Assembly (NCBI GenBank): GCA_044892505.1
Contig: CM097882.1
Coordinates: 13,888,001-13,952,000, forward strand
Length of the DNA stretch: 64,000 nt
Source of the DNA: Schmidtea nova
Taxonomy: Eukaryota
Direction: 5' to 3'
The translations under genes were made by a program, and so were the position numbers. The notes below the pieces were generated by a model. That model was not told the DNA's origin. It ran no database searches and saw nothing but the letters and a program-made list of their open reading frames with translations. Of the stretch, positions 2 to 55,277 are shown in pieces (position 1 is the stretch's first letter; the number at the start of each line of letters is the position of its first letter).

Positions 2-2665
2 AGAGAAGCAGATGAAATATTCCTCACAGAAGAGAACAGACAAAAAGAATTGATAGAGGAATTTAAAGAGGTATTGTATAAACAACCATTTGATGATAAC
101 GAAACACTGAGAATAATCAATAAAATAAAAGTTAATGGGATTGAATTAGACAAGCTTAGAAATTTGATACCAATGATGGTAAAGAGGCAAAATATAACAA
201 AAGTATTTGAATTGGAAATAGAAATAAAAGAGATGTTAAAATGTTATGGAGAATATATAAGAAAAAACGAAAGATTGCACGAAACACTAAATGTAACGAT
301 CGAGTCAAACGATAACTACTTTTTCAGTAACAAACAACGGGTACATCCCTGCACTAAAGTGAGCAAATTAAAACGAATGGTAAGAGCCAAATGGCCAGGA
401 ACCATAGGAGAGAAAGATGTAATAAAATTATATTTTAACAGAATAGAATTATTAAGTGACGAGTACTTAATCGATTATGGGATAAACCCAATAAGTGATA
501 ATATTGTGGTAGCCACAGTAGAAAAACGAATGATCGATGAAATAGTGACGCCAGTACCGTCGGTTGAGCTGAGTATAAATGAAGAAAACGATTTTGATAG
601 ATTATTTAGGCTATGGGATAAATCACCTAGCGAAACAAAGAAATCAGTAATGGATGAAGAAATTATATTTAAACCTATAGATGAAAAGTATAGTAACTTA
701 CAAGAAACAATAGAAAGAATAGCTGAGGAAGCAAAAACAAAAGATGCAGAAACATCAAAACGAGGTAGAGGAAGACCTCGAAAATCAGAAATAATAGATA
801 AATCGGAGAATAGAAAGACAGCAGAACGATTAAGAGAGATTACAAATCAACATAAACATGAACAACCAGAGTATCAAGACGATAATAATGACGTAAACAA
901 AATAAAAGAAGTAATAAAAGCAATGAATATTAAGCTATTTCCAGAAACAAAGCCAACAGTACTAATTGAAAATATAACTGAAAGGATGATGTTAATTAAA
1001 AAGGATACTAAAGAACTAGCTACAGAGGAAGCAAATGAAAAAACAGTGTTAAAAATCCTGTTTAATACAGGGATAGATAAAGATAAAATAATAACGGCCA
1101 TGGCATACTTGGCCGCAAGATATAAAAAGCTCATAAAGGAAAATCCAAAAGAGCAATTAGAAAAAGTAGCAACAATGATGTTTAAAAGATTGAAAGTAGA
1201 GGCAATACCATGGATAAAAAAGAAAGGAGGATGGAAAGTATTATATGATAAAGATACGACGAATAAAGAGAGTGATACAGATGATGTAATAAAACAATTA
1301 ATAAAGAAAGCAACAGTAAAACCAAAGACAGAGAGTAAATCGATAACCTCCATAGTAATAGTCATAATCACTTTGTTATTAGATTTAATCAAGGGGGGCA
1401 ATGCAATGGTAGCATATGATTGTCAAAATCCAAAGTGGGGACAAAAATACTCACTGTTAGATGTTGAAAATTGCCCTGAAGCAAATCCAACTAAATTAAT
1501 CATGTCAGAGCCTCAAATATTCCATGTTTATCAAGAATCAGACTTTATTCATACAGAGGCTAAAGAGTGCATAGTAAAGTATCAGGAGGAAGCATATATA
1601 TGTCATGTTGGGGCAAGAACAGTGTTAAAACCTACGTGGACACCCGAAGCAGTAATATTGTCGCCAATAGAGTGTGAAGATGCATTTAAAACAAAGAAAG
1701 TAAAATATAGCGGTCATAAAGGAATAGAACTAGAAGCAAGGATAGGGGCAAAAATGAGACAAGATGTAAATGTTGTGGGATGGACATCAAAAGGAGGATA
1801 TTGTGAAGGAGGAGAATATACAATATGGGGCGAAAAACTGAGTAATGTTGTAGTAAGGAGACACTACATGGTAGAACTGAGAAAGTTCAAAGCATCATTC
1901 GACAGCAGCTCAAAGAAAATGATGATATACAAATTTTGTAGATTAGAAGAATCTTATTGCGATACAGGAGAATCAATGCTAATATACAAAATAGATAAAT
2001 ACGATTGTCAGTTAACAAAATTAAAATCATTAAAATTTAGGGAAATCAAAGGAAAACAGTTCACAGAAGTAGACTCAAAAAGGGTGAGAGATCAAAAAAG
2101 GAAAACAACAATTGTACAAGAAAAAGATACACCAACAATATATATGTCAGAATCTGAAAACGAAGCAATGAGGTTCGTTAGTAAAAGGAAAAGTGTAAAA
2201 TGTGGTAAGGAAATAATACAAACTAATTATGAAGGGATATACATAAGCAAAGAAGAAGTCAAAGATGCAAAACAAAAAGTAAATAAATTCGACGTCAAAC
2301 TTGCATCATACTTCAACAATAAAATCGATTTTTTCTATCATAACCAACTAGTACAATTAGATAAAGTATATCAATCAACAATTATGAGCGATTGCAAACT
2401 CAACAGAGAAATATTAAGGACAAAAATGGCAGTGGCGGTAACAAACCCAGATTTAATGGCACCAATAATCTTCTCAGAAGAAGGAACATTTGCAAGGATA
2501 GTAGGAGAAGTGATACAGACATTTCAATGTAAACCTGTTAGTGTATCGTTAGCAACAAATAATCAGTGCACTAATGAATTACCGGTAATATATAAAGGAG
2601 AAAGGGTATACCTTCAACCAATTACTAGAATATTAACAGAAAAAACATATATACCGAGAAAATAG
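2..2665 (+). pseudogene. Element A polyprotein N-terminal part: ubiquitin-like (~290-530), AT-hook (~760-785), Bcl-2-like (~890-1250), signal/anchor (~1345-1405), chuvirus-like glycoprotein ectodomain (from ~1406)
   Basis: Frame is open from position 2. Motifs: VHPCTKVSKLKRMV...KLYFNRIELLSDEYLIDYGI (Ubl); RGRGRPRK; LFNTGIDKDKIITAMAY and PWIKKKGGW (BH1/BH2); AYDC...SLLDVENC...ECIVK (Mono/Chu-type G). Ends in a one-base frameshift at ~2660. Confidence 0.8.
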
Positions 2666-3799
2666 AAAAATGCACTAACCTATTAGACCCATTATACAAA
2701 ATAAATGACGAAATGTGGATATCTATGTCAGATAGAAAGGAGGCAATGAAACCACTCAAATTAGAACTCATAGAGCTAGAAAAAAGATTAGAGTTTAAAG
2801 AAATCAACGATATGGACAGCAAGGGTATATATACGAGAGAAGCTATAGAAAGTGCAAGAAAACACATGTTATTTCCAAACGAAAAAGAAAGAGTACTTTC
2901 AATAATGGTTAACAGAGTTATCGAAGGAAGTTACGGAGGAAATTACAACTTTGATGTGTTATTATCAAAAGAATACTTTAAAAAAGTAGCATATAAAGTA
3001 CTATATAGCATATGGGGATACTTTGCAGTCCTTGGAAACATGTTTTCTACAATCTTAGGTATATATTATACGGTTGCATTACTAAAAATGATATGTTCTT
3101 CTCTAGTATCACTGAGACAGCTAAAACAAGTATTTGGAAATTCATATAAATTATTAGCATGTTTGTGCCCATTTATAGCTAAATATCTTATTACGGCGAA
3201 ACACGACAAGGAAATACGTTTAATAAAAGTCCAAAGGAATGAAGAAAGGCAATTATTGGTAGATGATGAAAACGATGAGGAAATAATTAAAGCGCATATA
3301 TCACATGAAGGAAATGTACCACAACAAGGACTATATGAAAACCAAAGAGAACAACTAAAAGAGCTACAAGAAAATATAGAAATCAAAATTCCTAGAGAAA
3401 ACAAGAATTGTCACTGTGAACCTAAAAAGATATATGGTTGTTATAGCTTAGAAGTCGAAACAATGGAACGATTAGATGCAGCAAACGAAGCAAGACCAAG
3501 ACTTAAAATAATTATAAACAATATAATCATAAATGCATTAGTAGATACAGGAGCAGCAACATCCTTAATTAGAGAAGATCAACTGACAGATGATCAGAAA
3601 AGAAATATTATGAGCACAACGGATAAAGTAGTATCGTTATCAGCACATTGTATTCCACTAAAGGGAGACATAGAACTAATAGTCGAAACACCAGAACAGG
3701 TAATAAACCACATATTTAAAGTGGTGCAAGAATGTAATAGCATATGTATATTGGGAATCGATATACTCAACAAGTTAGAAAATTGCATTATAGATTTAA
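2641..3799 (+). pseudogene. Element A polyprotein continuation: glycoprotein C-terminus with TM segments, then retropepsin protease (first copy, cut by the insertion)
   Basis: The shifted frame reads IEKCTNLLDPLYKINDEMW...; hydrophobic YSIWGYFAVLGNMFSTILGIYYTVALL; ALVDTGAATSLI. Confidence 0.85.
2848..3799 (+). repeat. 952-bp direct repeat, left copy (partner 11871-12822)
   Basis: Both copies run from GAAAGTGCAAG to ATAGATTTAA and their translations are identical. Confidence 0.95.
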
Positions 3800-4472
3800 T
3801 AATTAATAAAATTTTATTTCAATAAAATATGATAATTTTCCAATGGGACATAGCTCAACATGGAGCATCCCATACTGACAATATTCTAGGGCAGAAGAGT
3901 CTGAAATATCTGGATCAATTGGATGATATTCAGGGTTTTCTCGACTCGATTGTCACTCGAATTTGCCTGTATTGTCCCTGGCAGTGAATGTGATCTTCAT
4001 CGGATTTGGATTCCGGCATTGCAATATTGGATAAACTTCTCTTTGATTTCGAACAATCGGAATCATTGAGGTGTTCTATTGTCACTTGAAATTGTTTGTA
4101 TTGTCGTCAGTGGTAAAGGTATTCTTCTTTAGATTTAAATTCCGGATTTTCAGTTCTTAGTAAGTTTCTCCAGATTTTGTCAAGTATTCGAAAATGTACA
4201 ATAATTATCTTTAGGTTTTCTTTAAAGATTAAAATTTCCTTTTGATTAAGCTAAAGGAAAAATAATAATTAGCTAGACGCTGTTCCTGGACGAGGAAACA
4301 GTGTTTATTCACCGGAGCAAAACGTCAAGAAAAAGAGGGTAAGATGTTTTCAGGTCAAAGATAGAAATTTATAAACAAAATGAAGTAGTAAATAAGAAAT
4401 AATTAAGAAAGGAAAGAAAAAAGGGTAAATAAAATTGAATCAAGAAAAGAAAAAACCCCTCCAAAACTAACA

Positions 4473-4566
4473 AGCTCATCCACACGAGAGGAGAGAACAC
4501 ATTGTTCATCTCCAAATTTATATTCACCATTAGGCATTTGAGTTTCAGTTGGAATCATTTTTGAAA
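4473..4566 (-). repeat. 94-bp exact repeat of 11781-11874 (encodes the first 29 codons of ORF1)
   Basis: Identical AGCTCATCCACACGAG...ATCATTTTTGAAA. Confidence 0.95.
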
Positions 4567-4732
4567 AGAGAAGAATTAAAAGAGATTATTTAAACAATGC
4601 TATGATATTTCAAACTTTTAATTTAAATTAAAAAAAAAATTAAATAAATATCTAACAAAGTTAAGTAATTGTTATCAAAAATAAAAAAGGAAAAGGAAAT
4701 AAATTTAAAAAAAAAAAAAAAGAAGTTTGAAA

Positions 4733-4852
4733 AGTTTCACAGCACCTCGTATTCCCAGGCGGTCACCCATCCAAGTACTAACGAGGCCTTAACCTGCTTA
4801 ACTTCCGAGATCGAACGACATCGGTTGAATTCAGACTCGTTTAGTTGTTGTT
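4733..4852 (-). rRNA. 5S rRNA: 5S rRNA gene; nt ~19-120 well conserved, 5' ~18 nt replaced or overlapped by the retroelement ORF end
   Basis: Minus strand reads CTGAATTCAACCGATGTCGTTCGATCTCGGAAGTTAAGCAGGTTAAGGCCTCGTTAGTACTTGGATGGGTGACCGCCTGGGAATACGAGGTGCTGTGAAAC, followed by Pol III terminator T-runs. A and C boxes are recognisable. Confidence 0.92.
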
Positions 4853-6241
4853 AATTCGAATGAATTGCTCCTCGTTTTCGAAAATGGGTAGTGTACCATT
4901 CTTGTGGAAGTACCATCGTTTTGCCGAGTGTGCAATATTACTAATTGCACACTTTTTTAATAACCCAGCCACCTGGCCTTTATTTATGCCAATTTTCTGA
5001 AGGATCTGAGGAGTTTCTACAGGAAAAGAGCCAAGAGCGCCTATAATGCAAGTATCGAGTTCAACTTTAAAGTCTGGCTTGACAGTTTGAATATCGATTT
5101 TCAGAGAGTTGTAATTTTCCAAATTCAATAAATTTACACGCTCAAAGTTACATAAAGAATCACTCGGACATTTAAGGTCAACAAGGAAGATTCTTTTTCT
5201 AAGAACATCAGTTATCAGCAAATCCACCCGCTCTTTAGAACTCGGAACAAGTGAACAGGCATGGTTGACAACAACAATTAGGTTTTTATTAAGTTGGAGA
5301 TGATTAGAAATGAGTTTAAGGCAAGCATCGTGTCGTTCAGAGCCCAAAGTCATATGAACTTTGCACGATTGAAGTACATGTGATGAGGTTTCATCCTCAT
5401 CATGACATCGACGACAGAGTCTTTTCTCTCCACTATTATAAGGCTTTGCAAGGGTGGAAAGAGTGTTGGTGCGTGCTCTATGGACAAAGTTCCAAGCAAA
5501 CTCGGATAAATCACTGCGATAGATAGCTTTGTTTACTGTCGGTGAAAGCTTTACAGATGAAGCGATAATGTTTGAGACACAGCTTTTTTCCCATTTAACC
5601 AAGTATGAATCATTGAGCGCTAAGTGCAACACTTTTGCCGTGGTCTCACGTTCGTCCGGAGTTACAATACATGTACCACGTGCGTTCGTATTAATATAGA
5701 GACATAGTACATTATTGGTGATAGTAAAAGTGATGTTGATGTCGTGCGTCTTCTCAAAAAAAGCAATCGCAATCCTGGCTCTTTGAAATCGAGTTTTCTT
5801 TCCAGAATGGGGAGAAAGAGACTCTTTTCCATTGAGCCATTCAAGACTTTCCTGAAGAGTTGGATTTTTTATCCCAAGACGTGGACTGGTGATAAAAGCT
5901 AAAGAGTCAAGATTAATTTTCCTTGTAAAGTCACACTGTGACGTGATTAATCGAAAAAAGTGTGTGATAGTCTGTGTGTGATATTCGTCGAGGAGATCAA
6001 CACAGTTTGCTCCCCCATTTTCAGTTGAATTGTAGAAATAACTCACTTCCGAGTGATTAGGCAAAAGCAGCATTTTTCTTAAGGTTTTCCTTAACTGGCT
6101 AGTGATGTTAACTGAAAGATTTTTATTATCATAAGATTTTGAAAGTGCACTAGTTTTAATTTCACGGGTTCTAAAAGGGAAGATCAAGCGAGAATGGATA
6201 AATACTTTGTAAGCTTTAAGTTTTTGCCACCCAAGCAAATC
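4841..6241 (-). pseudogene. NeSL-like ORF2 C-terminal part: RT thumb, CCHC knuckle, RLE endonuclease
   Basis: GGANCVDL, CRRCHDEDETSSHVLQSC, RHDACL, ERVDLLI, LVDLKCP. Confidence 0.9.
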
Positions 6242-9200
6242 CTAATCAGCAAGTTTTTTGGTGTCTTTGAGTGCCTCCAGTAGAATGTCGTAAGGACTTT
6301 GGTCAGTTCCTTCGCCAACTGGCACACCTAGGTATTGATAAAATTCATTAGACAGTAGTTTTTTTATTTTAACTCCATTGATTGAAATTTCACTGTCAAT
6401 GTGAATTCTAGGAAGTTGCAGATAAGCACATTTCTCTGGCCGATATTCAAAGCCTATATTGGTTGCAGTTGTGACAGCAGTGTTAATGAGTTTTTGCAGG
6501 TCATTAGGAGATTTAGCGAAAATTGCGATGTCATCTGCATACGCGAGAATTTTGACAGATGATTCTCCAATAGCAAAAGCATCACAGACTGTTCTGGAAA
6601 CAGCTTCCAACACAGGATTAATCGCCAAAGCAAACAAAATCATGGAGATGGGACATCCTTGCTTGACACCCTTTTTAATTGGGATCTTTGGTGTCAGAAT
6701 AGGACCACAACTATAGAAGGAGCTTGTGTCAGAATATAAAAGTTCTAAGATGGAGGTAAAGTCTTCACTTACCCCAGTGTATCGGAGTAAGGACCACATG
6801 TAATCATGTGGGACACTACCAAAAGCATCTTTTATGTCGAGCCAAGCAATGGAAAGAGGACAGTTTTTACTATATTTGGAATGTTCCAGAGCAGCAGACA
6901 GAATCGAGTTGTGTTCAACGCAACCTTCATGTTGGGAGCCACCTTTTTGTCCAACATGTAATAGTTTATTAGAGTTTATCCAGCGTGCAAGACGAGAGGC
7001 TAGACAGGACGCAAAAACTTTGTAGATGACGGATAGCAAGGCAATCGGGCGCCAGGATGATATATCTGAATATTTATCATTTTTATTAGGTTTCGGGATT
7101 AGAGTGGTTTTGTAGACCTTCCAACTGTCCGGTATGGACTTCTCTGTAATGATCTTGTTGAACAAGAAAGTAAGTATATGACCATCAGGATCTAGACGCA
7201 ACAAGTCACGATATTGTAATCCATCAATACCAGGACTAGTGTTGTCAGCCCTCCTAAGTTCATACATCACTTCCCTATTCGAGAAGCATTTCAGAGGAAG
7301 TACATTTTGAGAGTGTTTACAAAAGTCAAATAGTTTCTCCCAATGCCCACGTGCAGGTGTTTCATGAGAAAAGTTTTTAACTATGTTCTGAAAAGTTGGT
7401 CGAGCCGGTACATCGAAATTGTTGATGACCTTATTGACAGCTGACTTCATATCTTTCATGAATAAATCGATCAATTTATTTTTGCTAATTTTAGAAGTTT
7501 TAATTTTGGTTCCCAAGTATGGTTTTTTAGCTGGTTTCACTTTTTCAGGGAATTGCTCCATAATCGCGTGAATAATTTCATTTGTGCTATAATTTGCCCA
7601 TTTAATTAAAAATAGTTCAGCATTAGTTCTCTTTTGTTTTATCGGAACTCTCAATATAGCTTTATGAATAATTTTAGTGTTACTTGGGTTTTCTATATTA
7701 TCGTGCTGCCTGACAAAGATAAGCAAAGAGCCAACCACGTCTCCAATCTCGCGCAAGTTTAAATTTACAAGGGGCAAATTTTTCGAGAAATTATTAATAA
7801 ACGCACACAAGAGAATTTTACTAACAAGACCTGAGCTGCGGATGTCATGGGGACATTCAGAAAGATTCAAAACGCGGCCAGGTGTATCTTTTATGTCATT
7901 TATTTTATTTCTCAGAATTCTGCAAGTAGACAGATAATTGTCATTCACAGTTAAAGATGTTGGGTTTACAAGATAAAAGGTGTCAACACTATAATCGAGA
8001 ATGAGCAAAATTTCACGATGTTTAGGGGGAGCAACAATCGCAAAGATGATTTGTGATTTGCATATATTTTCAAAATTCAGAAAATCATTTATGTGTTGAG
8101 TACAATCGTCAAGAATAGCCGTGCACATGGTCACACTCAGTAAAAAAAAAGTCTTGGGTAAATTTAAATTATCAAAAAACATTGAAATTATTTTATCCGA
8201 AATTTTAGAATTAAGTAAGTTTAGATTCTGAGAGATTTCATTTGTTTCCCTTAATTTTATTGAGTTTAATGATTTGTGTATATTTAAAAAATGAATAACT
8301 TTATTAAACAAAAGTTTCTCAAGAAGCTCAATAAAAACCGACGCAAAGAGAATTGTATCATCAGAGATGTTGGGCACCAGTTCCAAGCCGTGGTTAGGTT
8401 TAAAAGAAATGTTTGTTGATAGAAAGAACTTATTCAAGTAGTCAGTAATATTTTCGCCGATGCCAAGTAAACGGTCAGAAATAGGTTTTTCTTGATTGTT
8501 AAAAACGTAACTTGCACCATGTGTAATAGAAAAAAGATATAAACACCAGTAATTATCATTCGGGATAACACTGATGACATGGTTAATCCCTAGAAAATTT
8601 TTTAACGTGACATTTTCTCTAATAAATGAGTTATTTCTAGAGATTATATTTAGTGTAAGTTCTTGGGACAGGACCAAGATGTCTTTATGGTCTTTAAACC
8701 ATTCGGTAATCAAAGACGAGATGCAGGCATTACGTTTCATAAGGAAGATGTGGTCGTGTTTATTAGAAATATTTAGAGTTGTGTCTTTTTTCACTCTCTT
8801 AGGGTTAGTGAGTTTAGATTCACCACCTCCAGATGATTTTGGGACCATGTTATTTAAAGTAAGTTTAAATTGGTAGACATCTTTTCTGATATTTTCTATA
8901 AAATCATCAGGAAATTTTTGCCATGTACCACTTATCATCATAGCATAAGCACAGATGTAAGGCCCACAGTCATAGTTATTATTTTGGTAGACAAAGTTTT
9001 TATGTGGGTGGAAAAATAGTGCAGCTTTAAGGTTAAAAAGACGATTCAAAGCGATTGTAGTTTGAAGAGCGTCGGCTCTATTGGTCAACGAATGGCGGTT
9101 GTTGAAAAGAGGATCTACAAAGTATGAAGTTAAAGAAGTTTTACAATACACAAAAATAATCCAATGAGTTTTATTAATATTTATTGGACATAGTAGAGTT

Positions 9201-9466
9201 TGCGCAGATATTACTCTGTCTGGCATTCGAAAAATGGTTTCGCAAAGATTTGCCCGTAAGATTTCTATTTGAAAGCATTTTATTGGAGCAAATTTAGGGT
9301 CATTGATATGACATTCAAGATAGTTATCAATGTCATCATCAGTAAACCATATTTTAGGGTCACGCAATATATTTGTGATTTTAGATGGTTTAAATTTTTT
9401 GGGAAATGTGCTGTCTGCATCAGTCTCTGTTGAGATTGGGGCAGATATTGAGACTGGTGCAGGCAC
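6242..9466 (-). pseudogene. NeSL-like ORF2: Ulp1/C48 protease domain(s) + reverse transcriptase, cut by in-frame TAG
   Basis: RT motifs as above. TAG at 6244-6242 is followed in frame by DLLGWQKLKAY. Confidence 0.92.
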
Positions 9467-9472
9467 ACAACT

Positions 9473-11866
9473 TCATTTGTTTTTGATAGCCGTACGTTTG
9501 GGTTTTTTAATAGGCTTTTTCGAAGAGTCTTGAGACTCACTATCAATTAATTCAGTGTTTGATGTCAAATTTTCATCAATATCGACAGGAAGTTTATTTG
9601 TAGGGTTTTCTACCAAATTGTAATTTATTTCGGCTTCATCGCATTCAGGAATAGAAAAAAGAGGCTCGTTTACAAGCTTTTCAGTATTCTCATTGTTCCC
9701 CATCACAGGCTTATCAACCTTTTCTATAGCAGGTTTTTCATTGACAGTTAGCTTAATAGAGCATAAGATTCTAGATATACCTTCGCTCATTTCTGGAGTA
9801 CAAATCTTTCTACAGTACTTGGGAACGCGGAAAGTAAATTTATTTTTTAAAAGAAAAGTTTTTTTATCTCTAATAAGAAAGAATAAGAGTCTTTTCGCTT
9901 TCAAGGTGTTTGAGTTATCCAAATCGTCTTGGAATTCGTTAATTCCACGTCCTATATTTTCAAGTGCCGTTAGTTGTTGTGCTTTATTTGGCAAAAGATT
10001 TTCGATAGAATCAAAGAAGTTGTTAATATCCAAAATAGTTTTTGGAGAGATGATGTTGTTTATTTTATCGATCTCTTGAAGTATAAAAGTTTGTTTGAGT
10101 TTTAGGAAGCGCTCTTGGCAGCTTTTGTTATAATAGGAGTTGGTAGGTAGTTTTTTAATTAGTTCCATAGCCCAGGATTCAATATTATCGCAGCATAAGG
10201 AGTCTACACTCTCAAGCTTCACAATCGAGTGCATTAGGAAGCAGTTACGAATGTAATTATAAACATATATATTAAATGATAAATTTATTTTGCATTTTAA
10301 AGATCCCTGTAAGTTTAGGTAATTTAAGTAAAATATTATATTTATTAATTTCTCAGGTGACTGAGGCTGTTTTAATAATTTATTGAACTCAATGTCCACA
10401 TTTGACATTTCTACAAAGTCTAATAAGCCAAGATTAAACATTATGTCAGACGCACCATTATCGTGCAGTCCAACAGAGTTTTGAAAAATTTTATTTTTAA
10501 CAAATTTACCCCCAACAAATGAAATCTCATTAGGAAAATGTTTTATAGTTTTTAATTCTTTAATTAAATTAATTAATAAATCAGGATACCTGTTCACGTT
10601 TTCCATAAAGTAGAGCTTTGGAATTTCAGGAAAGGATCTTGTTAATTCTTCCAATTCAGAGCGAGAAAGATCGATTGGGTTTAGATCAGTGCTGTCGCCA
10701 ACTAATTCATCGGAATTAATAAGGTCTAACAGAAGAAACTCTCCATTTGAATACTTTAACTGAGAATTGATTAAGAAATTCGGAATCTCTCCACTTTGTT
10801 TTAGTTCGTCTAAAATTTTATTAATTCGGATCTCCCGATCCTTAACATTTTTTATCGTAATAGTTCCTGAAAATCTTTTTGTGAGGGCATAAAGAAACTT
10901 CTTTATGCAAAGAGAGGCAGGAATAAACTTATTACGGTTACTCAAGGGTTCAATAACTTTGGAGCCTATTAGGTAAGTTTTATTTTTAGATTTTTTACCA
11001 TCAAGAGCGTTTGGTTTGTAATCAGTGGGCCCAAACTCAATTAGGACACAAATATATCTATTTCTATAAAAGAGCTTACTAAATCCAGCGATACCCAGCA
11101 AGTTGTCCGTTCTCGGAATTTTACTTAGTAAATTATTTATTTTAGAAAATTTCTGTGCTGAATCTCTTAATTTAATCAATTGGGAAAGTTGTGGGAATGA
11201 TTCAAAAAGTTTTTGTCTTTCTCTTTTATAAAGGTGACGTGGGAAACTCGTTAAGAAACGTTCAACCTTTGAAAAATGTTTTACATGACTTATATCAGGA
11301 TTTTCCCCATCAAACTTAATCTTAACTATGGAATTTGACTTCTCAGGTTCAGCAGACTTCTTTTCTACTTCCACTCCCACAAAAAAACTTTCATTTGATT
11401 TTCCATTGATCGAATTGTCCAGTTTAAGCTCTGGAAAATCAACTTTTTCTGAATATGCTGAAATCAACTGAGATTTATTTTTATTATCATTTTTAAATAA
11501 ACTAATTTTTATCTGGGACGGCTCAATTTTATCCCCTTTCAAGTCCCCGACCAGAGAAATCCTCCTATTATCTCCAAAAGTAAATCCATCAACATTTGGG
11601 TGCTGATCCACAGATCGAACACTATCAGCATTTCCAATCTCATACAATCGTTGCGATTTCGCAAGATTGTCAAAAAAAGAAACATTATTTTTATCAAAAA
11701 ATTGTGTTTCATTGTTATTTAAATTTAAAAAATTAACAATCAAATCAAGCTTACTAAGGATTTTCTTGAAAGAAGCATCCAGCTCATCCACACGAGAGGA
11801 GAGAACACATTGTTCATCTCCAAATTTATATTCACCATTAGGCATTTGAGTTTCAGTTGGAATCAT
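9473..11866 (-). CDS. NeSL-like element ORF1 / N-terminal region (~800 aa, no recognised domain)
   Basis: Long ORF, same frame as ORF2, separated from it by a single TGA. Confidence 0.7.
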   Translation of the reverse strand: MIPTETQMPNGEYKFGDEQCVLSSRVDELDASFKKILSKLDLIVNFLNLNNNETQFFDKNNVSFFDNLAKSQRLYEIGNADSVRSVDQHPNVDGFTFGDNRRISLVGDLKGDKIEPSQIKISLFKNDNKNKSQLISAYSEKVDFPELKLDNSINGKSNESFFVGVEVEKKSAEPEKSNSIVKIKFDGENPDISHVKHFSKVERFLTSFPRHLYKRERQKLFESFPQLSQLIKLRDSAQKFSKINNLLSKIPRTDNLLGIAGFSKLFYRNRYICVLIEFGPTDYKPNALDGKKSKNKTYLIGSKVIEPLSNRNKFIPASLCIKKFLYALTKRFSGTITIKNVKDREIRINKILDELKQSGEIPNFLINSQLKYSNGEFLLLDLINSDELVGDSTDLNPIDLSRSELEELTRSFPEIPKLYFMENVNRYPDLLINLIKELKTIKHFPNEISFVGGKFVKNKIFQNSVGLHDNGASDIMFNLGLLDFVEMSNVDIEFNKLLKQPQSPEKLINIIFYLNYLNLQGSLKCKINLSFNIYVYNYIRNCFLMHSIVKLESVDSLCCDNIESWAMELIKKLPTNSYYNKSCQERFLKLKQTFILQEIDKINNIISPKTILDINNFFDSIENLLPNKAQQLTALENIGRGINEFQDDLDNSNTLKAKRLLFFLIRDKKTFLLKNKFTFRVPKYCRKICTPEMSEGISRILCSIKLTVNEKPAIEKVDKPVMGNNENTEKLVNEPLFSIPECDEAEINYNLVENPTNKLPVDIDENLTSNTELIDSESQDSSKKPIKKPKRTAIKNK

Positions 11867-11870
11867 TTTT

Positions 11871-12822
11871 GAAAGTGCAAGAAAACACATGTTATTTCCA
11901 AACGAAAAAGAAAGAGTACTTTCAATAATGGTTAACAGAGTTATCGAAGGAAGTTACGGAGGAAATTACAACTTTGATGTGTTATTATCAAAAGAATACT
12001 TTAAAAAAGTAGCATATAAAGTACTATATAGCATATGGGGATACTTTGCAGTCCTTGGAAACATGTTTTCTACAATCTTAGGTATATATTATACGGTTGC
12101 ATTACTAAAAATGATATGTTCTTCTCTAGTATCACTGAGACAGCTAAAACAAGTATTTGGAAATTCATATAAATTATTAGCATGTTTGTGCCCATTTATA
12201 GCTAAATATCTTATTACGGCGAAACACGACAAGGAAATACGTTTAATAAAAGTCCAAAGGAATGAAGAAAGGCAATTATTGGTAGATGATGAAAACGATG
12301 AGGAAATAATTAAAGCGCATATATCACATGAAGGAAATGTACCACAACAAGGACTATATGAAAACCAAAGAGAACAACTAAAAGAGCTACAAGAAAATAT
12401 AGAAATCAAAATTCCTAGAGAAAACAAGAATTGTCACTGTGAACCTAAAAAGATATATGGTTGTTATAGCTTAGAAGTCGAAACAATGGAACGATTAGAT
12501 GCAGCAAACGAAGCAAGACCAAGACTTAAAATAATTATAAACAATATAATCATAAATGCATTAGTAGATACAGGAGCAGCAACATCCTTAATTAGAGAAG
12601 ATCAACTGACAGATGATCAGAAAAGAAATATTATGAGCACAACGGATAAAGTAGTATCGTTATCAGCACATTGTATTCCACTAAAGGGAGACATAGAACT
12701 AATAGTCGAAACACCAGAACAGGTAATAAACCACATATTTAAAGTGGTGCAAGAATGTAATAGCATATGTATATTGGGAATCGATATACTCAACAAGTTA
12801 GAAAATTGCATTATAGATTTAA
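11871..12822 (+). repeat. 952-bp direct repeat, right copy
   Basis: Matches 2848-3799. Shares 4 bp (GAAA) of microhomology with the end of the insert. Confidence 0.95.
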
Positions 12823-13388
12823 CAGATAATACGATAAAGAGAAAAGCAATTAAACATAAATCCAAGTTCACAGAAGTTGTTGCATTAGAAGCATTTGAAT
12901 TGGAATATGAATGCGATCATATTATTCCCTTAAAAGTTAACATCAAAAGTGAGGACACTTTTATTTTTGAGCCAGAAACGGCAATTATACAAAATCAGAA
13001 TATAATGCTAACCAATGAATGCGTAATTCCGAGAAAGGGAATAATACCATTGAGAATAGCAAATTATGAAAAAAGTAATGTTAAAATACACAAAGGTACG
13101 AAATTGGGAAAATTATTCAAAGGTGAATTAGAAAAAACGTACGAAGTTAGTGAGATAAGTGTGATGAATGATAACGGCAAGAAAGTAGTCGAACCTAGTA
13201 AGATAAATAATATAAAATCATATGACAAAGTAAAAATTAATAATGAATACTTAACAATAACACAACAAGCACAACTACAAACATTGATAGATAAATATAG
13301 TGATGTTTTTGCAAAACACGAATTTGATCTAGGAGATACCGATATAATCAAACATGTAATAGATACAGGTAATGCGAGACCAATATAA
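11889..13388 (+). pseudogene. Element A: duplicated glycoprotein tail + retropepsin protease + post-protease linker
   Basis: DTGA. Ends at an in-frame TAA that is followed by QRPYSVPY...WASPIVPVKKKDG. Confidence 0.9.
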
Positions 13389-16300
13389 CAAAGACCATAC
13401 AGCGTACCATACAAGTTAAGAGAGGAAATAAAACGACAAATCAAAGACCTAAACGATGCAGGTGTAATAAAACAGAGTTTTTCACAGTGGGCATCACCCA
13501 TTGTACCCGTTAAAAAGAAAGACGGAGAAATAAGAATGTGCATTGACTATCGTAAATTAAATGATGTAACAGTAAAAGATTCATACCCATTCCCAAAAGC
13601 ACAAGAGCAATACGATAAACTTAGGGATGCTAAGTATTTTTCAGTTATTGACGCAAATAAGGGATATATGCAAATTCAAATGGAGGAAGGGGATGCGGAA
13701 AAAACAGCATTTGTTATCGAGGATGGTTTATATGAGTACACACGATTACCTTTCGGGTTAACTAACGCACCAGCTACATTTCAGCGACTAATGAACACAA
13801 TATTAGTAAATGTACAACATTGCGCAGTTTATATGGATGATATACTAATATCATCAAAAACATTTGAGGAACACTTAAAAGATATAACAAATGTACTCGA
13901 GAGACTAAGAAAAGCAAAAATTAAAATTAAACCAACTAAGTGTAAATGGGCAGAACCTTCGGCGTTATTTCTAGGGCATATAGTTACAGTAGAAGGGATA
14001 AAACCAAATCCAGAAAAAATAGAAGTTGTAAAGAAATTCCCAATACCAAAAACAGTACAACAAGTACAAGGGTTTTTAGGTCTAACAGGGTACTATCGTA
14101 AATTCATACAAGATTATGCAAAGATAGCATCACCGATAATAGAACTAACAAAGGGAATTAGAACAAAAGGAGAATGCAAAGATGTGTTAATAGTACAAGA
14201 AATTAACAACAAAGTTAACAAGATACAAAAGAAGTGGACAAAGGAACACCAAGAAGCATTCAATAAACTAAAAGAAAGATTGATAACAGCACCAGTGTTA
14301 AGATACCCAGATTTCGAAAAACAGTTTATAGTAATGACGGATGCCAGCGGGAAAGCCGTAGGAGCAGTCTTGGGCCAAGAAGAAGAGAAAGGGAAAGATT
14401 ACGTAATAGCATATGCCAGTAAAACATTAAAAGGAGCACAGCTGAGGTATTCAACAATAGAAAAAGAATGTTACGTAATAGTATTCGCCCTAAAACAATT
14501 CAAACCATACATATATGGGACTGAAGTGATAATAAGAACTGACCATAAACCATTAGAAGGTTTATGGAAACATAAAGATACATCAAGTAGATTACTTAAA
14601 TGGGCAATGAAAATACAAGACATGCACCTAAAGATTATATATAAACCAGGTAGAATAAATAAAAACGCAGATGCACTATCAAGAATACCAGAATTAGGAG
14701 CACTTGAAATATTTGCACTGGTAGCAGAAAAGCCAATCGATATATATGAGGAACAGATGAAAGACCCAGAGAACAGTAAAATAAGGAATGAAATCAGAAA
14801 AGAAAACAATTCAAAGTATAAAATATCAAAGAAATTAGTAGTAATAGAAGATTTCAATGGTAAGCAACTAATAGTAGTACCTCAGAAATTAAGACAAATA
14901 CTCCTACTACAATATCACGATGGAGCATTAGGAGGTCACTTATCATCTAGAAAGACAGCAAGTAATTTATTACAAAAATATTACTGGGAAGAATTAAAGA
15001 AAGATGTTAAGAGATGGTGTAACGCGTGTACAATATGTGCAACAAGAAAAAATACAGGTACAAAAACAAAAGCACCATTACATCCCATTCCAGCAACGAC
15101 ATCACCAATGGAACTATGTGCAATGGATTTTCTATGTAAATTACCTACTACAATTAATGGGAATAAACTAGTATATAGTAATTATTTTACTAAATGGGCA
15201 GAAGCATTTCCAACAAAAGACGAAACAGCAGAAACAGTTGCTAAATTGCTTATAGAAAAAATTATTTTCAAGATAGGCACACCCAAAAGATTATTAACAG
15301 ATAAAGGAACAAATTTTACTAGCGAATTAATAAAAAGAGTAGCTAATATTTTTAATATGCAAAAGATTAACACAACAGCGTATCACCCTCAAACTGATGG
15401 ACTAGTAAAAAGGTTTAATGGTACATTACTAAGCGGACTAGCTGTTTTTGTAGGAAAACATCAAAATGATTGGGACGAATACATAAGTCAATGCACATAC
15501 ATTCATAATATCACTCCAAACGAAACAACAGGGTATTCACCGTATTATTTAATGTTTTTAAGAGAACCAGCAACACCAATAGATACAATATTTGAACCTC
15601 GAGTATCACAATATTTAGATGCACCAGATTATGTCACACTAATGCAGGAAAAACTGCAAGAAGTGTATAAAGTAGCCAATCTAAAAGTCAAATATAGACA
15701 AGAACAGTACAAAGCCGACTACGACAAAAATAGTAAACCACACAACTTTAAAGTAGGTTATAAGGTTAGACTTATGTCACCACAAGTAGGAAAGGGAAAG
15801 ACAACAAAACTAGCAAGACCATATAAAGGTCCATATGAGGTAGTAAAAGTAATAAATGAGAATTTACACTTACAAAAACATAAAAACGAGGATCCAATAG
15901 TAGTACATGTCAACAGATGCAAGTTGGCGGAAGCCGAGGTCACGATAGATAAACCTCACAAGTATAATCTAAGATCTCATAACAAACTAATAATATCAGC
16001 TATCTTCTTAACAATCATAACATTCGTTGGCTCAACCAAAACAATAGAATTTGACAAAATATTAATAAAAATAGCAACAAACGAAGTTAGAGTATTTATC
16101 ATAAATAGAGGAGTAATTGATATATACATGCAAACAACGAATGGGAAAAATCCAAAGATGATAAAAGGAAAAGACGACAGAACAACCAACGAAATCGAAA
16201 GAGGAAGCTATATTAATTTCACAAAACTAACACCTAATACAATATACAGAATCTGCATACAGAGAAACACAGATACAACAACATGGAGATGCAAAAAAAT

Positions 16301-16769
16301 AAAAACAGAACAATTACCCAAGAATATAACAAAAAATCATAACATAACAAAAACACTCGATAGAATAAAAAGCACAACAACGACATCAGATAATATACTA
16401 AATACCACACCACATACAAACGAAATACCAACAAGCACTGAAATAGCCAAATTCCAAAAACAATACAATGCCAAAAAACAAAAACAAGAACCTATCAAAA
16501 TAAGGCAAGGAAGACCAATAGTGATACATAACTTAGAGGAACTACAAGCATTTCGTAAAGAGGATAAAAAGCCACATTGGCCTTATTATATCATCACAAC
16601 ATCAATAATAGCATTAACAATTTTAGCTTTAATAACTAGCGTACAAATTTATAAAAAGTACAAATGGAAAAGGCAGCGGTATCGGAGCCGACAGGTCAGA
16701 AATGTACCAGGGCATTTCCATTTGGGCAAATATATACCAGGTGAATATACAAAATCCACATTGGTGTAA
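13389..16769 (+). pseudogene. Element A: RT-RNase H-integrase fused to signal + FN3-like + Thr-rich stalk + TM; third integrase catalytic residue is K
   Basis: CIDYRKLN, LPFGL, YMDD, TDASG, H..ALGGH..C..C, TDKGTNF, GLVKRFN (E>K at 15408), GPY; then LIISAIFLTIITFVGS, LTPNTIYRICI, TM YYIITTSIIALTILALITSV. Confidence 0.92.
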
Positions 16770-16928
16770 TACGTTTTGGTCAATAATAATAATTAAAATC
16801 ATATATATTCGTATTTATATAGCGTATAAGGTTAAACCGACAATACGCCTTAAACAAAAAACTTTATCCTTTATTTTTAGAAAAGAATACACGAGCAAAA
16901 CAAAGCAAGTTCCAACAAACTCCGAAAA

Positions 16929-17186
16929 CCCAATCAATCTCGTGAATTCTACACACCAATCAAATCATTGCGACAACCATTCAAAAATCTCAATAAATAC
17001 AATCATCTCTTTTTTAAACTGTCACAACAAACAATCAAAAAACCCTACTAATTATCTCTATACAAAATACCCAATCAATCTCGTCGATTCTATAAACCAA
17101 TCGAATCGTTACGACAATTACCCATATATCTCAATATATTCAACTATATCTCTGTTAAACTGTCAAAACCCTATTAATCATCTCTC
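16929..17186 (+). repeat. ~141-bp diverged tandem duplication in the 3' region of element A
   Basis: CCCAATCAATCTCGT at 16929 and 17070, with similar following sequence. Confidence 0.75.
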
Positions 17187-17308
17187 AAATCAATATATCA
17201 AGAAATCAATTCGATACCAATCAAAAACAAAGATGAATCAAAATCAACCTCATTTCAATCAATCAAGAACCTACCAGAAATACACTTGTTTTATGAAACA
17301 AACTCAAC

Positions 17309-19297
17309 ATGAGTTTTTATAAAAATCTACTGAACAATATATGTACTGATGGAACCCCAATTACAATTCGCAGTTTCCCAAATCAAATATGTATCCCAAA
17401 CGACATGAAAGTCGAAATAGAAGAACGGGAAATGCATCTGATAAAATTCAATGAGGCCCGAAGAGTGAAACTCAAAGAGCTTATTGGAACCTTCGACAAA
17501 TACCAAAACGTCGACAAAGAAGTTGCCGAAAACAAAAGAATCCCTCACAGATTAATATTCCACATGACAAAAACAGAAGTTGCAATATGTCAAAATAAAA
17601 TCCCGTTAATTGTCACAAGCAACTGTTCAGCAGTTATCAAGTTAATAAGAAAAGACAGAAGCATGTCAAACGATCTCAATGAGCTGACAGTGCAGATGAA
17701 TAACCTACCATGTGTGATAGCAATCGAAGTGCTATATATCCCGACAATCCAAAATCCGTTCATAAAATTAAACCCAATACATTCAATCCTACAAATAAAT
17801 GAAGATATGATCAACCAGAAGATATCATTCACGAATCAAGAATTAACGACTGAAGAAAGGCATTCATTAACTGTAATTGTGGATATAAAAGTAGTTTAAG
17901 ATATAAACAAAAATCTCAGACCAGTGGAAATTTGTATCAGAAGCAAAAAAGGAGCAATTCTGTATAACAAGTTCATCACCCCAAGAACGAAAGTTGAAAA
18001 ATTCTACACGGAAAAAACTAAAGCTACAAAAGAAAACATAATTGGAAATGAAGACGAATATAAAGCCTTAAATGAAATTCGAAACATTCTCTATGGAAAG
18101 ATCATAGTTGGATTCAACATCATAGATAAGTTAAAACTATTGACAATAGATCTGGACAACATTATGGGCATAAGAGAAATGGCACAGGATCGATTCATGT
18201 GTTCTTTTGTAAAAAACGTGGCACCACCAAAAATAAAAATATCAAATTTGGCTTACCAGGTAATCAATTACCATAAAAGTTGGCATAAAGATAAAAAGTT
18301 AAATGATATATTGAGACAACCAGAACCATTCTCAACAAAGATCACCACAATGCTATTAAAAGTTATCTACGATATCACAGAAAATAAATGGGAAGAAGTT
18401 GTCAAATGGGATTCCGCAACACTTCTTAAAAGGAAACAAGCAAATGGAGAAGAACAACTAGAAACAATATTCGAAAACGAAACAGAGAGCGAAGCAGAAA
18501 GTGAGATAGAAAGTGAATATGAAGATGGAGAAGGCATGGAGCCGTCCCTTGGGGAATCAATAAAAACCAATCATAATAAACCAAAAAAGTCATTCATGGA
18601 AGAGCTCATGGACAGTGACGACGATGAACTCATGATCATAAAAGAAGAAATACCACTTATCGCTCCAACTAGAGGAATCAAAGCAGAACCCAAAATTCAA
18701 AATATTCTATATGAAAGAATGGACGAATGTGATATAGATGATGAATATTTCTCAGCAGATGAGAACATAGAAGAACCTTCAACCAGCAGTAACGACATCA
18801 AAATGGAAGAAGATAATGAAGAACCATCAACAAGTAATAAATACAACATAATGGAAGAGGATATCGGACAAGAACCAAACGTTGAAATGTTAGCCGACTG
18901 GACAGAACCAGAAGAATCAGATTTCATAATAGACAAAGACAAGAAATACGTCTCAGAAAAAGATCTCTGCACTCATTTTGGAAGACAAATTGAGCACGAG
19001 GAGACAATAAACCTTGCGATAAAAAATAGATTTCGAAAAACAACAATTCAAATAAAAGAGAAAAGAATTGATTTAATATTGTGTGACAAGGGTAATGAGG
19101 ACATTACTTTGACGGCCCGGGGAGGAATGTTGGATGATGAAGGTAAGCCCATCAATACATTCCTCTTATCCGAAAACTATAGTGTGGGAGGCGGCAGGTA
19201 CAGAATAAATATTTATGCAGAGCCCGTTCAAGAAGAAGCAAATATCAATCAATCTCAATACGGTAGATCAAGACAACAATATCCATTGGGCATTTAA
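17309..19297 (+). pseudogene. Accessory ORF of element A with a degenerate REXO4/ISG20-like DEDDh exonuclease domain and an acidic region; one in-frame stop at 17897
   Basis: The two ORFs share a frame. VIVDIKVV*...ILYNKFITP...ILYGKIIVGFNI..KL..L...IRE follows the ISG20/REXO4 pattern with acidic catalytic residues altered. Confidence 0.65.
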
Positions 19298-25250: not shown

Positions 25251-25485
25251 TCAAGTGACTTATCTTGTCAATTACCCGATTTTCAGGTTGTTTGTTTACG
25301 TGTGTTCATTTTATCTTTGATTATTCTGTTAAATAACAGATTTATTCGTTCCATCTAATTCGATTCATTTGTTATATAGGCGCTTTGTGGTGGTCCGGAT
25401 GATGTGTTCTCATTTTGGCTGTTTATTTGTAAGCCTTTTTATCTTTGTTAATTCCTAATAGTAGTAGGAAGTGAGCCCGCCAGAT

Positions 25486-26430
25486 ATAGGTCAAGACCCC
25501 CCCATAGAAAAAAAATTTTTTTATGTAGGTCAAATTTTTCGCTTAAGGACACTTTAAGGTCAAATTTTTCGCTTAAGGTCACTTTGAGGACACTTTAAGG
25601 TCAAAAAAGTAGGTCAAAGTCGTTTTAAGGACACTTTAAGGTGAGTTTAAGGTCAAATTTATGGTTCAAGGACACTTTAAGGACAAAAAAGTAGGTTAAG
25701 GTTGTTTTAAGGACACTATAAGGTCAAAAAGAATGCCAATTTAAGGTCACGATAAGGACAAATAAAGTAGGTCAAATATTTTTAAGGTGAATTTAAGGTT
25801 AAAATAAGTAGGTCAAATATTTTTAAGTTGCTATGACAACGAATAAGTAGGTCAACTTAATTTTTTCAAAATTTGATAGTTGCTATGACAACGAATTAAG
25901 TAGGTCAATAATAATTTTAAAAATTTTTCTATGTCAGAATTAAGTAGGTCAAATATAAAAAACTTGAAAATTTTTCTATGTCAGAAATAAGTAGGTCACG
26001 AAAAATTTTCTATTTCAGAAAAAAGTGGGTCAACTTTATTTTTCTCAAAAATATTTCTATGTCAGAAATAAGTAGGTCAACTTTATTTTTATAAAAATTT
26101 TCCTATGTCAGAATTAAATAGGTCAAATATAAAATTATTCAAAGTTATAATATATTTAAAATATTTTCTATGTCGGAATTAAGTAGGTCAATTTAAGGTC
26201 AATGTGAGGACGAATTAAGTAGGTCAATTTAAGGTCAATGTGAGGACAAATTAAGTAGGTCAATAATAATAATAATTTCTAAAATTTTTTCTATGTAAAA
26301 ATTAAGTAGATTAATAATAAATTTCGAAACTTTTCAAAGTCAGAATTAAGGGTACATTCAGGGTACTATAAGGTCAACAAAGTAGGTCAAATAGATAATT
26401 TTCTATGTCACAATTATGTAGGTCAAATAT
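25486..26430 (+). repeat. Subterminal array of AAGTAGGTCA/AAGGTCA motifs (mirrored at ~33625-34530)
   Basis: About 15 or more GTAGGTCA copies in degenerate 30-45-bp units. Confidence 0.85.
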
Positions 26431-27811
26431 AAAAACTTTAAAATTATTCTATNNNNNNNNNNNNNNNNNNNNNNNNNNNNNNNNNNNNNNNNNNNNNNNN
26501 NNNNNNNNNNNNNNNNNNNNNNNNNNNNNNNNNNNNNNNNNNNNNNNNNNNNNNNNNNNNNNNNNNNNNNNNNNNNNNNNNNNNNNNNNNNNNNNNNNNN
26601 NNNNNNNNNNNNNNNNNNNNNNNNNNNNNNNNNNNNNNNNNNNNNNNNNNNNNNNNNNNNNNNNNNNNNNNNNNNNNNNNNNNNNNNNNNNNNNNNNNNN
26701 NNNNNNNNNNNNNNNNNNNNNNNNNNNNNNNNNNNNNNNNNNNNNNNNNNNNNNNNNNNNNNNNNNNNNNNNNNNNNNNNNNNNNNNNNNNNNNNNNNNN
26801 NNNNNNNNNNNNNNNNNNNNNNNNNNNNNNNNNNNNNNNNNNNNNNNNNNNNNNNNNNNNNNNNNNNNNNNNNNNNNNNNAATATTATTGATAATAATAA
26901 TATTATTGATAATAATAATAAATAAGATTAATCATAATCATAATAATTAATAATAATAATAATATTATTTTTCTTTTTACCCTTTCATTTGTTCATTACC
27001 GATTGTAATTGTCTCATTTCTTTTTCGAAAAGTTCAATCATCTGGCACAATAGATATTCATTTTTAGACAATTCCGATATTTGCATTGATCATCGCGTGA
27101 AACTTGACTGTTGAGAATTTCAAGAATTTTCGGAACACTTTTCTGACAGCCTGAAATAATTAATTACATATGGTTGGAAATTATTGCTAAAAATTAACAA
27201 AAATTACATTTCAAGTAAAATAAAAAATCTAACTAGATAACGCTAAATAAATAATCAAGCATTTCATAGATAAAAATATGTCCTCTTTCTCTAAATTCAT
27301 CTTCACAAACTAAATATAAAGTTATTAAATTAAATAAATATGTATTATATATAAAAATAACCTGAAATGTGATTTAGTAACGATTCCATGTTAACAAGTT
27401 TTGAAACATAATATTGATTTGCCCTAGTACGCTTCACGGTAAATAGGGATAATAAATTCTTCCATAGTGAAGATATAAAAATTTATGTATAAATTATTAA
27501 ATTTGTGTATAAATTATTCAAATTTTTGCAAATAAATACAGTTTTTAAACAAATTATTTAAATTAAATTATTTAAATTAAATTATTTAAAGTTAATTAAT
27601 TAAATATTTAATTTAATTCTTTACTTAGAGAAAAGTAAATAATATTAAATAAATATTATTAAATAATATTAATAATATTAAAAGTTAATTAAGTAAATAA
27701 TATAAATTAATTTAGTTAAATCCAGATTGGTTTTAATAGTCTTCAATTCCGTCCTACTTTTATTAAAATTTTATAAAGTGTCAAATAATGAATTATTTAA
27801 ACACTATTTAA

Positions 27812-28240
27812 TTTAAATATCCAACTCTCCCCTTCTTAAGACCTTTTCCACTTCAGCCACTCGATTCTTCTTCCTTTCATACCTTCTTGCGAGTGTTTTA
27901 CTCGTTATTTGAGTCTGAAATCAAATGGTCACATGTCATTGTGGCGTTCATGTATATAAAACAGATAATGGATAATTCGGGTTCAAATTATGAAAATTAT
28001 TTTCAATGGTCAGTACAGGTATATTATTTTTATTTAATTATATTATTAATATTATTTTAGATTATCGAAAGTGAAATATGTCCCTGGGTTCAAGAAAATG
28101 GACAATGGCAAAAACTACTAGAATTGGCCGAAAATAGTAGAACTATTAGGAAAACCAAAGAAAGATTGAAAAATCTGTTGAAAATAACAATTGGACTCTG
28201 TAGTATTTATGCTATTGTAAATTTAATTCATCGAAAATAA
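27812..28240 (+). CDS. Bcl-2-like gene (BH1-like, BH2, C-terminal TM) with 42-nt intron 28019-28060; 5' end uncertain
   Basis: LFESEIKWSHVIVAFMY...WSVQ|IIESEICPWVQENGQWQKLL...ITIGLCSIYAIVNLIHRK*. The phase-0 GT-AG intron joins in frame. Confidence 0.75.
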
Positions 28241-29282
28241 ATGTATTTTTGTTTAATTGATACATGAATGAAAATATTCAATATGAGCTTTTACAGATAA
28301 AAACCATCACAAAAGATGTTCTGCTACCAATGTTCTGATATTAATGTTCTGTTAGGAAGGTTCTGATACTTGAGATTATTGATACATGAATTAAAATATT
28401 CAATATGAGCTTTTACAGATAAAAACCATCACAAAAGATGTTCTGTTACTAAGGTTCTGATACTAATGTTCTGCTAATAGGGTTCAACTACGGTGTTACT
28501 CATCACATTTTAAGTATGAATTGTTGACATAAATCACTATGATGTATATCACTCATGTCTAAAACACTTTTACTCTATATTTCATGTTATTAATGTAATA
28601 CATGAGTCATGCTCTTGTATTGCAAATGTTATGCACTTGTATTGTTTGTGACATTGCTTGTGTCATACACTTGTGATAATCAGGAACATGCATATTTCCC
28701 TTAAATATTAATCAATTTTAATTATTATTTTCAGAGTAAATTTAATACAAACTAGTAAAGAATATTGACAATTTCTATATATTTTTAACTAATCATTTAT
28801 TGATCAATGATTTTGGGTACTTCATGATGATATAAAAGGGGGTTAAGTTATTGTAAAATGATTGAAAAAATGATAAAACGACGACTATTATTGACCTGTA
28901 CATTCAATTATAGAAATCTTTACAAGTGTAAAAACCATTAATTTTCAACTAATTACTCTAATTAGTTTTTAATTAATTCAGTTTTTTAAAGATTTTTACT
29001 TGTCAACTGAGCTATTTCTATTGTTAACAGTATTTATTGAATTGTAATAAATTTACAAAGTAAATGATGTGAAACTTTTTGAGTTAATTTACATAGAAAT
29101 TTGAGACATTATTTATATCTTTTGAGCTATTTAAAAAATACAAATTAATATTAAACTCTGTAAAAGTAATAGAAAATATAAATGTACGACATAAGCATTA
29201 CTTGCGCTTATATTTAACAAGACTTTTACTAAAAATAAATACTATAAAACACTAACAAAATCGAATAAAAAATAAAAATTTA

Positions 29283-54390: not shown

Positions 54391-54542
54391 CCAGTGGAAG
54401 GAACAGTGTATATAGTGTATAAAATTATATCGTATTATAAAAGTAGAATATTTTTGTGTATAATAAAAATTTAAAAATCCAACAAATGAATACCTAAAAA
54501 CTGGGAAAAACAAATGATAATATTGTGTAATTATTGACAGAA

Positions 54543-55178: not shown

Positions 55179-55277
55179 AAATTTAAAACCAGTGTAAATA
55201 AAATGTAAAAATGTGAATATGAATAAAAACTTGGTATAAAAAAAAACAAAACGAAAAAAATTGTAAATTATTTTAGA

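Follow-up and report, generated by a model that had tools for sequence, protein, structure and literature searches.

Among the described elements closest to the two families reported here, Mutsu encodes an APE nuclease and TART is a telomeric element that is likewise of the APE type. In the excerpts of the literature drawn on here, zebrafish Mutsu integrates at a point about 20 nt into the 5S gene, counted from its 5′ end (PMC5340908), and Dada-5S also targets 5S (PMC8869645). SINE3, Cassandra, and Ajax carry 5S sequence as cargo (PMC10886601, PMC10946416). In planarians, LIN9/24/26_SM target 28S, LIN15_SM targets tRNA-Arg, and LIN25_SM targets tRNA-Glu (PMC4640811), and insertions of LIN25_SM and LIN26_SM are also recorded in Polinton families (S6 Fig of PMC4640811). 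For TART, a template jump from the 5′ to the 3′ repeat has been proposed, with read-through from extended sources as the alternative (PMC1636488). Target duplications with a median of 900 bp, ascribed to the combination of RLE and APE nucleases, are described for Dualen-4b_cRei, and a 126-bp duplication is described for R9 (R9Av) (PMC9977147).

Here we report that a retrotransposon lying in a 64,000-nucleotide window of the Schmidtea nova genome (the whole stretch of DNA analysed, to which the positions below refer) belongs to a family, termed family B, that carries a 5S rRNA-derived piece inside its own tail, and that its sister, family A, inserts in 5S genes. The reading that we favor, with a probability of roughly 0.6, is that family B is dispersed and young, that its 5S block is likely the legacy of an ancestral 5S-inserting element, and that this block likely is a portable promoter element.

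The window copy lies on the reverse strand. ORF1 (797 amino acids; 9473..11866) is without a Pfam match, and ORF2 (1543 amino acids; 4841..9472) encodes a Ulp1/C48 protease, a reverse transcriptase (RT; Pfam RVT_1, E 1e-28), a CCHC knuckle, and an RLE-type motif. Peptidase_C48 scores above the Pfam cut-off in both families. The CRRC-H-C knuckle and the RVD...DLK RLE-type motif of family B ORF2 were read by eye; the RLE nuclease itself has no Pfam hit in this ORF, and Pfam finds no APE domain in the proteins of either family. Judged by these domains and motifs, family B is an RLE (R2-group) non-LTR retrotransposon with RT, CCHC knuckle, a predicted PD-(D/E)xK-type nuclease, and no APE, which bears out the RLE-type assignment made in the earlier note, and its Ulp1/C48 protease is as in NeSL. 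Architecture would place both families in the R5/LIN lineage of the NeSL clade; the tree described below contains unnamed relatives only, and no named R5/LIN protein occurs among 68 protein hits.

A single in-frame TGA (9473-9475) separates ORF1 from ORF2 in 10/10 family B copies, and it is also present in five intact family A copies (C2:8.12-8.22 Mb). Because ORF2 also has no early ATG of its own in either family, this arrangement suggests stop-codon read-through. In the window copy, ORF2 additionally contains a nonsense codon (6242-6244), and this position is a sense codon in 10/10 other family B copies. The private nature of this stop, together with an open ORF2 in 7 of 10 full-length copies, indicates that the family is young.

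The RT-RLE frame (4841-6241) terminates at a stop codon (4841..4843, reverse strand) that equals nt 10-12 of 5S, just as the earlier note had read it. The 5S rRNA-derived piece (4734..4852, reverse strand) is the sole Rfam hit in the 64-kb window (71 bits, E 5e-13). Beyond it on the same strand lie a T-run and AT-rich leader (4567..4733), which recur 5′ of ORF1 in 5′-extended copies, a 3′ copy of a repeat that we call R (4473..4566), and a true 3′ UTR of ~670 bp (a 669-nt tail; 3804..4472) with a short TTA-type tail at its end. R consists of the 94 nt at the element start, the ORF1 ATG included, and its 5′ copy (11781..11874, reverse strand), which is the 5′ end of the window copy, is 100% identical to the 3′ copy. 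We regard this anatomy of the block as nearly certain. The proposal that there is essentially no separate 3′ UTR is not borne out, in that the element extends ~930 bp past the 5S piece, to ~3804.

All 30 copies retrieved with a 5S piece (30 of 40 scored, from 616 candidates) share the flanks around it. For 26 of these, the whole ~930-bp stretch past 5S is common and ends near 3804, after which the flanks diverge; the other four continue into ORF1 via the 94-bp repeat. In a second sample of 30 copies, picked by the tail, 26 extend far enough to include the piece, and all 26 carry it. Exact matches to a 32-mer that is diagnostic for the piece number at least 128; they are dispersed and represent family B. 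Host 5S genes form 318-bp tandem arrays, with 1639 exact matches to the intact 5′ 34-mer, and none of the 100 listed among the 128 family B matches lies in the C1 or C2 5S arrays. The sequence following the window T-run is not host 5S spacer.

The earlier note had named random 3′ flanks in other copies as an outcome that would refute a 5S-specific element, and this outcome applies to family B, whose 3′ flanks diverge and are not 5S. At all 45 distinct family B 3′ junctions, the ~200 bp that follow are free of 5S sequence, and none is followed by the second (Polinton-like) target of family A described below. The 3′ ends instead lean to (TA)n and AT-rich DNA, with many in (TA)n, and eight pre-insertion sites yield no consensus target. 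The 5S piece is cargo inside the element tail, and the window copy is not sited in a 5S gene. The further suggestion that the element adopted 5S sequence as its 3′ end is therefore right about the adoption and wrong about the end, because the piece is internal.

Compared with the host 5S gene, the piece differs at eight positions within nt 1-17 (1, 2, 4, 7, 10, 12, 15, and 17), and homology is clear from nt 18 (position 4835), in close agreement with the earlier estimate of nt ~19 through the T-run. Further changes occur at nt 22, 28, and 34, and then again over the last nine nucleotides, at nt 111 and in the final few, whereas the 76 nt from nt 35 to nt 110 (4818-4743) are identical to host 5S. 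The differences amount to 0/76 in nt 35-110 versus 3/17 in nt 18-34 (Fisher p 0.005). We take nt 35-110 to span box A, IE, and box C (the internal control region), which by this identity would be intact in family B. In the Rfam alignment, helix I has 5/9 pairs broken and 4/9 kept, helix II keeps 7/8 pairs, helix III keeps 6/8 with the changes at the two lost pairs uncompensated, and helices IV-V are intact. Given the broken helix I and the lost helix III pairs, the piece is not a working 5S rRNA. Two related identities were considered and rejected. The piece as a functional 5S gene is at odds with the loss of helix I and the existence of about 1639 intact genes, and family B as the source of SINE3 is at odds with the same loss and with the location of the piece inside an autonomous element.

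Gaps of ~8 kb in the C2 5S array contain family A, which is 78% identical to family B in DNA and 78.9% identical in protein over 1545 amino acids. A quick tree of 22 rows (the two families plus 20 of the 68 hits, unnamed relatives only) makes A and B sisters with an SH-aLRT of 100. Family A is site-specific: 13 exact 3′ junctions, spread over four contigs, all fall before nt 22 of a 5S gene. The concept of a 5S-specific RLE family thus fails for family B and applies to its sister. Between the C1, C2, and C3 arrays, 5S occurs as two variants, with either A or G at nt 23, and family A inserts in both.

In a sample of 30 family A 3′ ends, 5S accounts for 8 and a second site for the other 22. This second site, at which there are 49 exact junctions, is located ~480 bp into the inverted repeats of a Polinton-like element of 15 kb. 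The empty sites of both targets share ATACTAATnTr|GRTT, plus GATC 20 nt on, and this common motif defines a recognition sequence. Because the repeat site is favored by occupancy (49 of roughly 900, versus 13 of roughly 1650 for 5S), family A is dual-specific rather than 5S-only. Hallmarks of Polinton/Maverick elements are AGTAGT termini, long inverted repeats, a 6-bp duplication, a length of about 15 kb, and an A32 ATPase. The second target shows AGTAGT termini, long inverted repeats, a 6-bp duplication, and a length of about 15 kb, and the Polinton-like element has a Pox_A32 match of 28.6 bits against a Pfam cut-off of 22.8; DNA polymerase B and integrase have no Pfam hit in four ORFs of one copy. 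In the Polinton-like copy at L284-L285 (C1:5203800-5220500), a 32-mer of the inner repeat has about 900 genome matches, and a 1240-aa ORF matches only Endonuclease_7, weakly, and not DNA polymerase B. We rejected the possibilities that this second target is a SINE or a 3′ extension of family A on the basis of empty sites, inverted pairs, and 6-bp duplications.

Nine full-length C2 copies of family A (C2:8126427-8197373) have a common 5′ junction with a mutated piece of 5S nt 1-39, in which the same three changes recur, two of them at the nick site. The nick-site changes would shield the junction from re-cutting, and the nine copies may represent one amplified ancestor. Some C2 copies are near-identical (99.99%), and this, together with the common junction, means that part of the family A array count is probably due to amplification. 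Other copies have their 5′ junction near nt 25, near nt 112 (L164), in the 5S spacer, or outside the array, and in one truncated copy it lies after nt 87. At least five 5′ junction types at 5S loci imply at least five independent insertions. Two off-array copies (L157 and L158; C3:16.29 Mb) begin with about 35 nt of 5S spacer, which suggests transcripts that start in the spacer.

The 608-nt 3′ UTR of family A lacks a 5S piece, and over its full length it can be aligned with the complete 669-nt tail of family B (global score 333, versus 156 +/- 14 for 100 shuffles). Since the tails are colinear and that of family A is without 5S, positions 4840-4473 constitute a 368-bp insertion at the ORF2 stop. 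This block comprises 5S nt 18-119, the T-run, the AT-rich leader, and R, and it appears to copy a 5′ junction in which a 5S gene is followed by the element start, a kind that family A still makes (L164). Indeed, family A copies begin after a near-whole 5S gene (nt 112, and nt 87 in the truncated copy), so a junction such as that of family B arises naturally. We consider it probable that family B descends from an ancestor that inserted in 5S genes in the manner of family A.

Additional information comes from 30 family B 5′ ends (30 of 40), the window copy among them. All 30 extend upstream into sequence that duplicates the 3′ block. Twelve of them end close to the ATG, within 4557-4592, six end in the leader or the 3′ half of 5S, and 12 contain the whole control region, with a longest extension of 2.27 kb. 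No pile-up of 5′ ends at 5S +1 is seen among the 30 copies or among truncated copies. Repeats were compared in 12 pairs, one of 13 being dropped because its 3′ copy was missing. In 11/12 pairs, the 5′ extension has fewer substitutions relative to the 3′ repeat of its own copy (37) than to that of the median other copy (about 76), and the own 3′ repeat is strictly nearest in only 5/12.

From these patterns, a template jump from the 5′ R to the 3′ R, as proposed for TART, is rather likely in family B. The RNA would start near the ORF1 ATG, and the reverse transcriptase, at the RNA 5′ end, would jump to the 3′ copy of R and continue copying. Such a jump would restore both the leader and the 5S control region ahead of ORF1 in a fraction of the daughter copies, as in 12 of the 30. 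Three to four family B pieces also occur in tandem, with periods of 7140 bp (C2:204579992-204594303) and 5381 bp (C1:122974368-122985161).

One possibility is that the 5S block has a promoter or chromatin role, to which, taken as a separate claim, we give slightly less than an even chance. An upstream 5S control region would bind TFIIIA/TFIIIC, and because Pol III would halt at the T-run, the likely role of the block would be to open chromatin for Pol II. Two observations weigh on the other side. First, 18 of 30 near-full-length family B copies are without a complete upstream control region. Second, family A has intact ORFs and has spread without 5S cargo, which counts against a need for such a promoter. 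Among the 26 tail-selected copies, variability in the 5S core (1.3%) gives no sign of selection relative to its neighbors (1.2-1.6%), and shared-variant sites (1/76 in the core versus 40/658 in the tail) are too few to speak for selection.

The alternative that survives best is that the block is a functionless, neutral relic that dates from the ancestor's time in 5S arrays and reached the 3′ UTR by one template-switch accident, with only its nick-site bases changed, against self-cleavage. This account agrees with the lack of a constraint signal within the family and with the ability of family A to manage without the block. In addition, the changes at nt 22, 28, and 34 sit in the recognition zone of family A, as do those in the 5S nt 1-39 piece 5′ of the nine family A copies, so cleavage escape combined with recent capture also fits. 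We nevertheless consider a relic unlikely, because a core of 76 nt matches host 5S exactly and the edges on either side of it do not, at a divergence between A and B of 45% of fourfold sites (207/461), and because the block is fixed in 26/26 copies long enough to hold one.

An RNA role is less probable still. Here the 3′ domain of 5S (helices IV-V and loop E) would recruit TFIIIA or uL18 to the element mRNA and aid its stability, transport, or ribosome loading. The intact helices IV-V and the largely retained pairs of helices II (7/8) and III (6/8) are consistent with this proposal, as is the presence of the 3′ copy in every full-length RNA when a full upstream copy is found in only 12/30 DNA copies. 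However, helix I is lost, the helix III changes are uncompensated, and Kojima, in the excerpt of PMC10886601 used here, takes a like pattern in Ajax as promoter conservation.

A distinct feature of both families is the frequent presence of large target duplications. A direct repeat of 961 bp of host DNA brackets the window copy; its downstream member (2848..3808, forward strand) is 99.7% identical to the upstream one (11871..12831, forward strand), with three mismatches that all lie at the tail junction. The duplicated stretch comes from a Ty3/gypsy-type element, specifically from its fusion-protein/protease region. This large host element occupies window positions 2-3825 and 11850-19297. In it, protease-RT-RNase H-integrase is preceded by a Monjiviricetes-type fusion protein and by a Bcl-2-like hit; another copy, which is degraded, may be present at 51232-62525. 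Elsewhere in the window, 25460-34554 contains a long inverted repeat (26881-29846 versus 33280-30315, 99.5%) as well as further inverted arms and masked stretches.

Duplications were assessed in 20 family B copies, namely the window copy and 19 others with about 10 kb on each side, after one copy was dropped for want of its 3′ end. Seven of the 20 have a duplication running from the 3′ junction to the 5′ junction (0.41, 0.96, 1.87, 4.57, 5.6, 6.4, and 6.74 kb), three have an interrupted or partly matched duplication up to the 5′ junction (3.5, 3.5, and 3.9 kb), two are suggestive, and eight show none within about 10 kb. For family A, 15 copies in the repeat site include four clean duplications (1.19, 2.48, 5.04, and 5.05 kb), two partial ones, and nine with none, and each of the six duplications starts upstream, where an empty target site has been re-formed; two further copies, in 5S arrays, are uninformative. 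Both families therefore often carry target duplications of 0.4-6.7 kb (10/20 in B and 6/15 in A). These could be formed if the first-strand nick is fixed, the cDNA end is joined far downstream, and host repair synthesis copies the DNA between. At L230/L210 (C3:139.39-139.42 Mb), a 100% match of 3.1 kb with a 16.2-kb offset across a family B copy is possibly a 16-kb target duplication.

It is improbable that these duplications are assembly artefacts or products of later unequal recombination. They come from a single assembly, and 8/20 family B and 9/15 family A copies show no duplication within about 10 kb. However, the start of 6/6 family A duplications at a re-formed empty site and the junction-to-junction extent of 7/20 in family B are difficult to reconcile with that explanation, and the ordinary 6-bp duplications of Polinton-like elements in the same assembly (11 terminal pairs) argue against a general assembly fault.

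Finally, that the window copy sits in a 5S gene, with 5S as its target flank, has a negligible chance of being correct for family B: the stop codon does adjoin 5S homology and a 5S-targeting sister does exist, but the element continues past 5S with no host spacer behind it, none of the 45 3′ junctions is at 5S, and none of the 100 listed matches lies in the C1 or C2 arrays.

The pairing of a site-specific and a non-site-specific family whose proteins are 79% identical offers a way to test which residues and RNA parts determine RLE target choice, a matter of current interest for gene insertion tools built on R2. If kilobase duplications are indeed made by an RLE-only enzyme, then two nucleases are not required. 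Such duplications bear on second-strand cleavage and 5′ joining, and they would be a steady source of tandem duplications in the genome. In addition, at least 128 dispersed 5S-like hits that are not rRNA genes are relevant to annotation and FISH.

Fell et al. 2025 reportedly surveyed 4464 genomes and reported new target preferences. We found no 5S-targeting RLE element in the excerpted literature, including PMC13580325, PMC13708176, and PMC13586686; the excerpts of the two reviews that cite this survey (PMC13708176 and PMC13586686) do not mention 5S, and Repbase or the survey itself may hold such an element. In the same body of excerpts, the only precedent found for kilobase duplications is Dualen, with its two nucleases. 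We propose only tentatively that these families represent the first 5S-targeting RLE lineage, with a switch from target to cargo, an LTR-like promoter of family B that would be rebuilt by template jump, and kilobase duplications from a single restriction-like nuclease.

Comparison with known systems, as represented in these excerpts, shows where each feature has a counterpart. Like the R5/LIN elements of the NeSL clade, in which small-RNA targets are diversified, A and B belong to the RLE type; family A has Polinton-like insertions in common with LIN25_SM and LIN26_SM, and both families share the Ulp1 protease with NeSL and Utopia-1_TSP. In contrast to family A, the main text and S6 Fig parts 1-2 of PMC4640811 give no 5S target for R5/LIN, and the excerpts of that paper describe neither a 5S block inside an element nor a terminal repeat nor duplications on the kilobase scale. 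Dualen and R9Av resemble A and B in their insertion-linked duplications, although A and B differ from Dualen in having no APE domain and duplications of up to 6.7 kb. Family B is like the Cassandra/Ajax TRIMs and SINE3 in carrying a 5S internal control region whose RNA fold is not functional, but those elements are short and non-autonomous, whereas family B is an autonomous non-LTR element of 8 kb in which the piece follows the stop codon and a T-run comes directly behind it. Like TART (PMC1636488), family B has a direct repeat common to its 5′ end and 3′ UTR and variable 5′ extensions; TART is without 5S sequence, and the repeat of family B contains the ORF1 start. Family A resembles Mutsu in its 5S site, before nt 22. 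However, Mutsu is an L1-group element (Repbase L1-2/-3/-5_DR) and family A is RLE-type, which indicates that the two reached this site in 5S independently.
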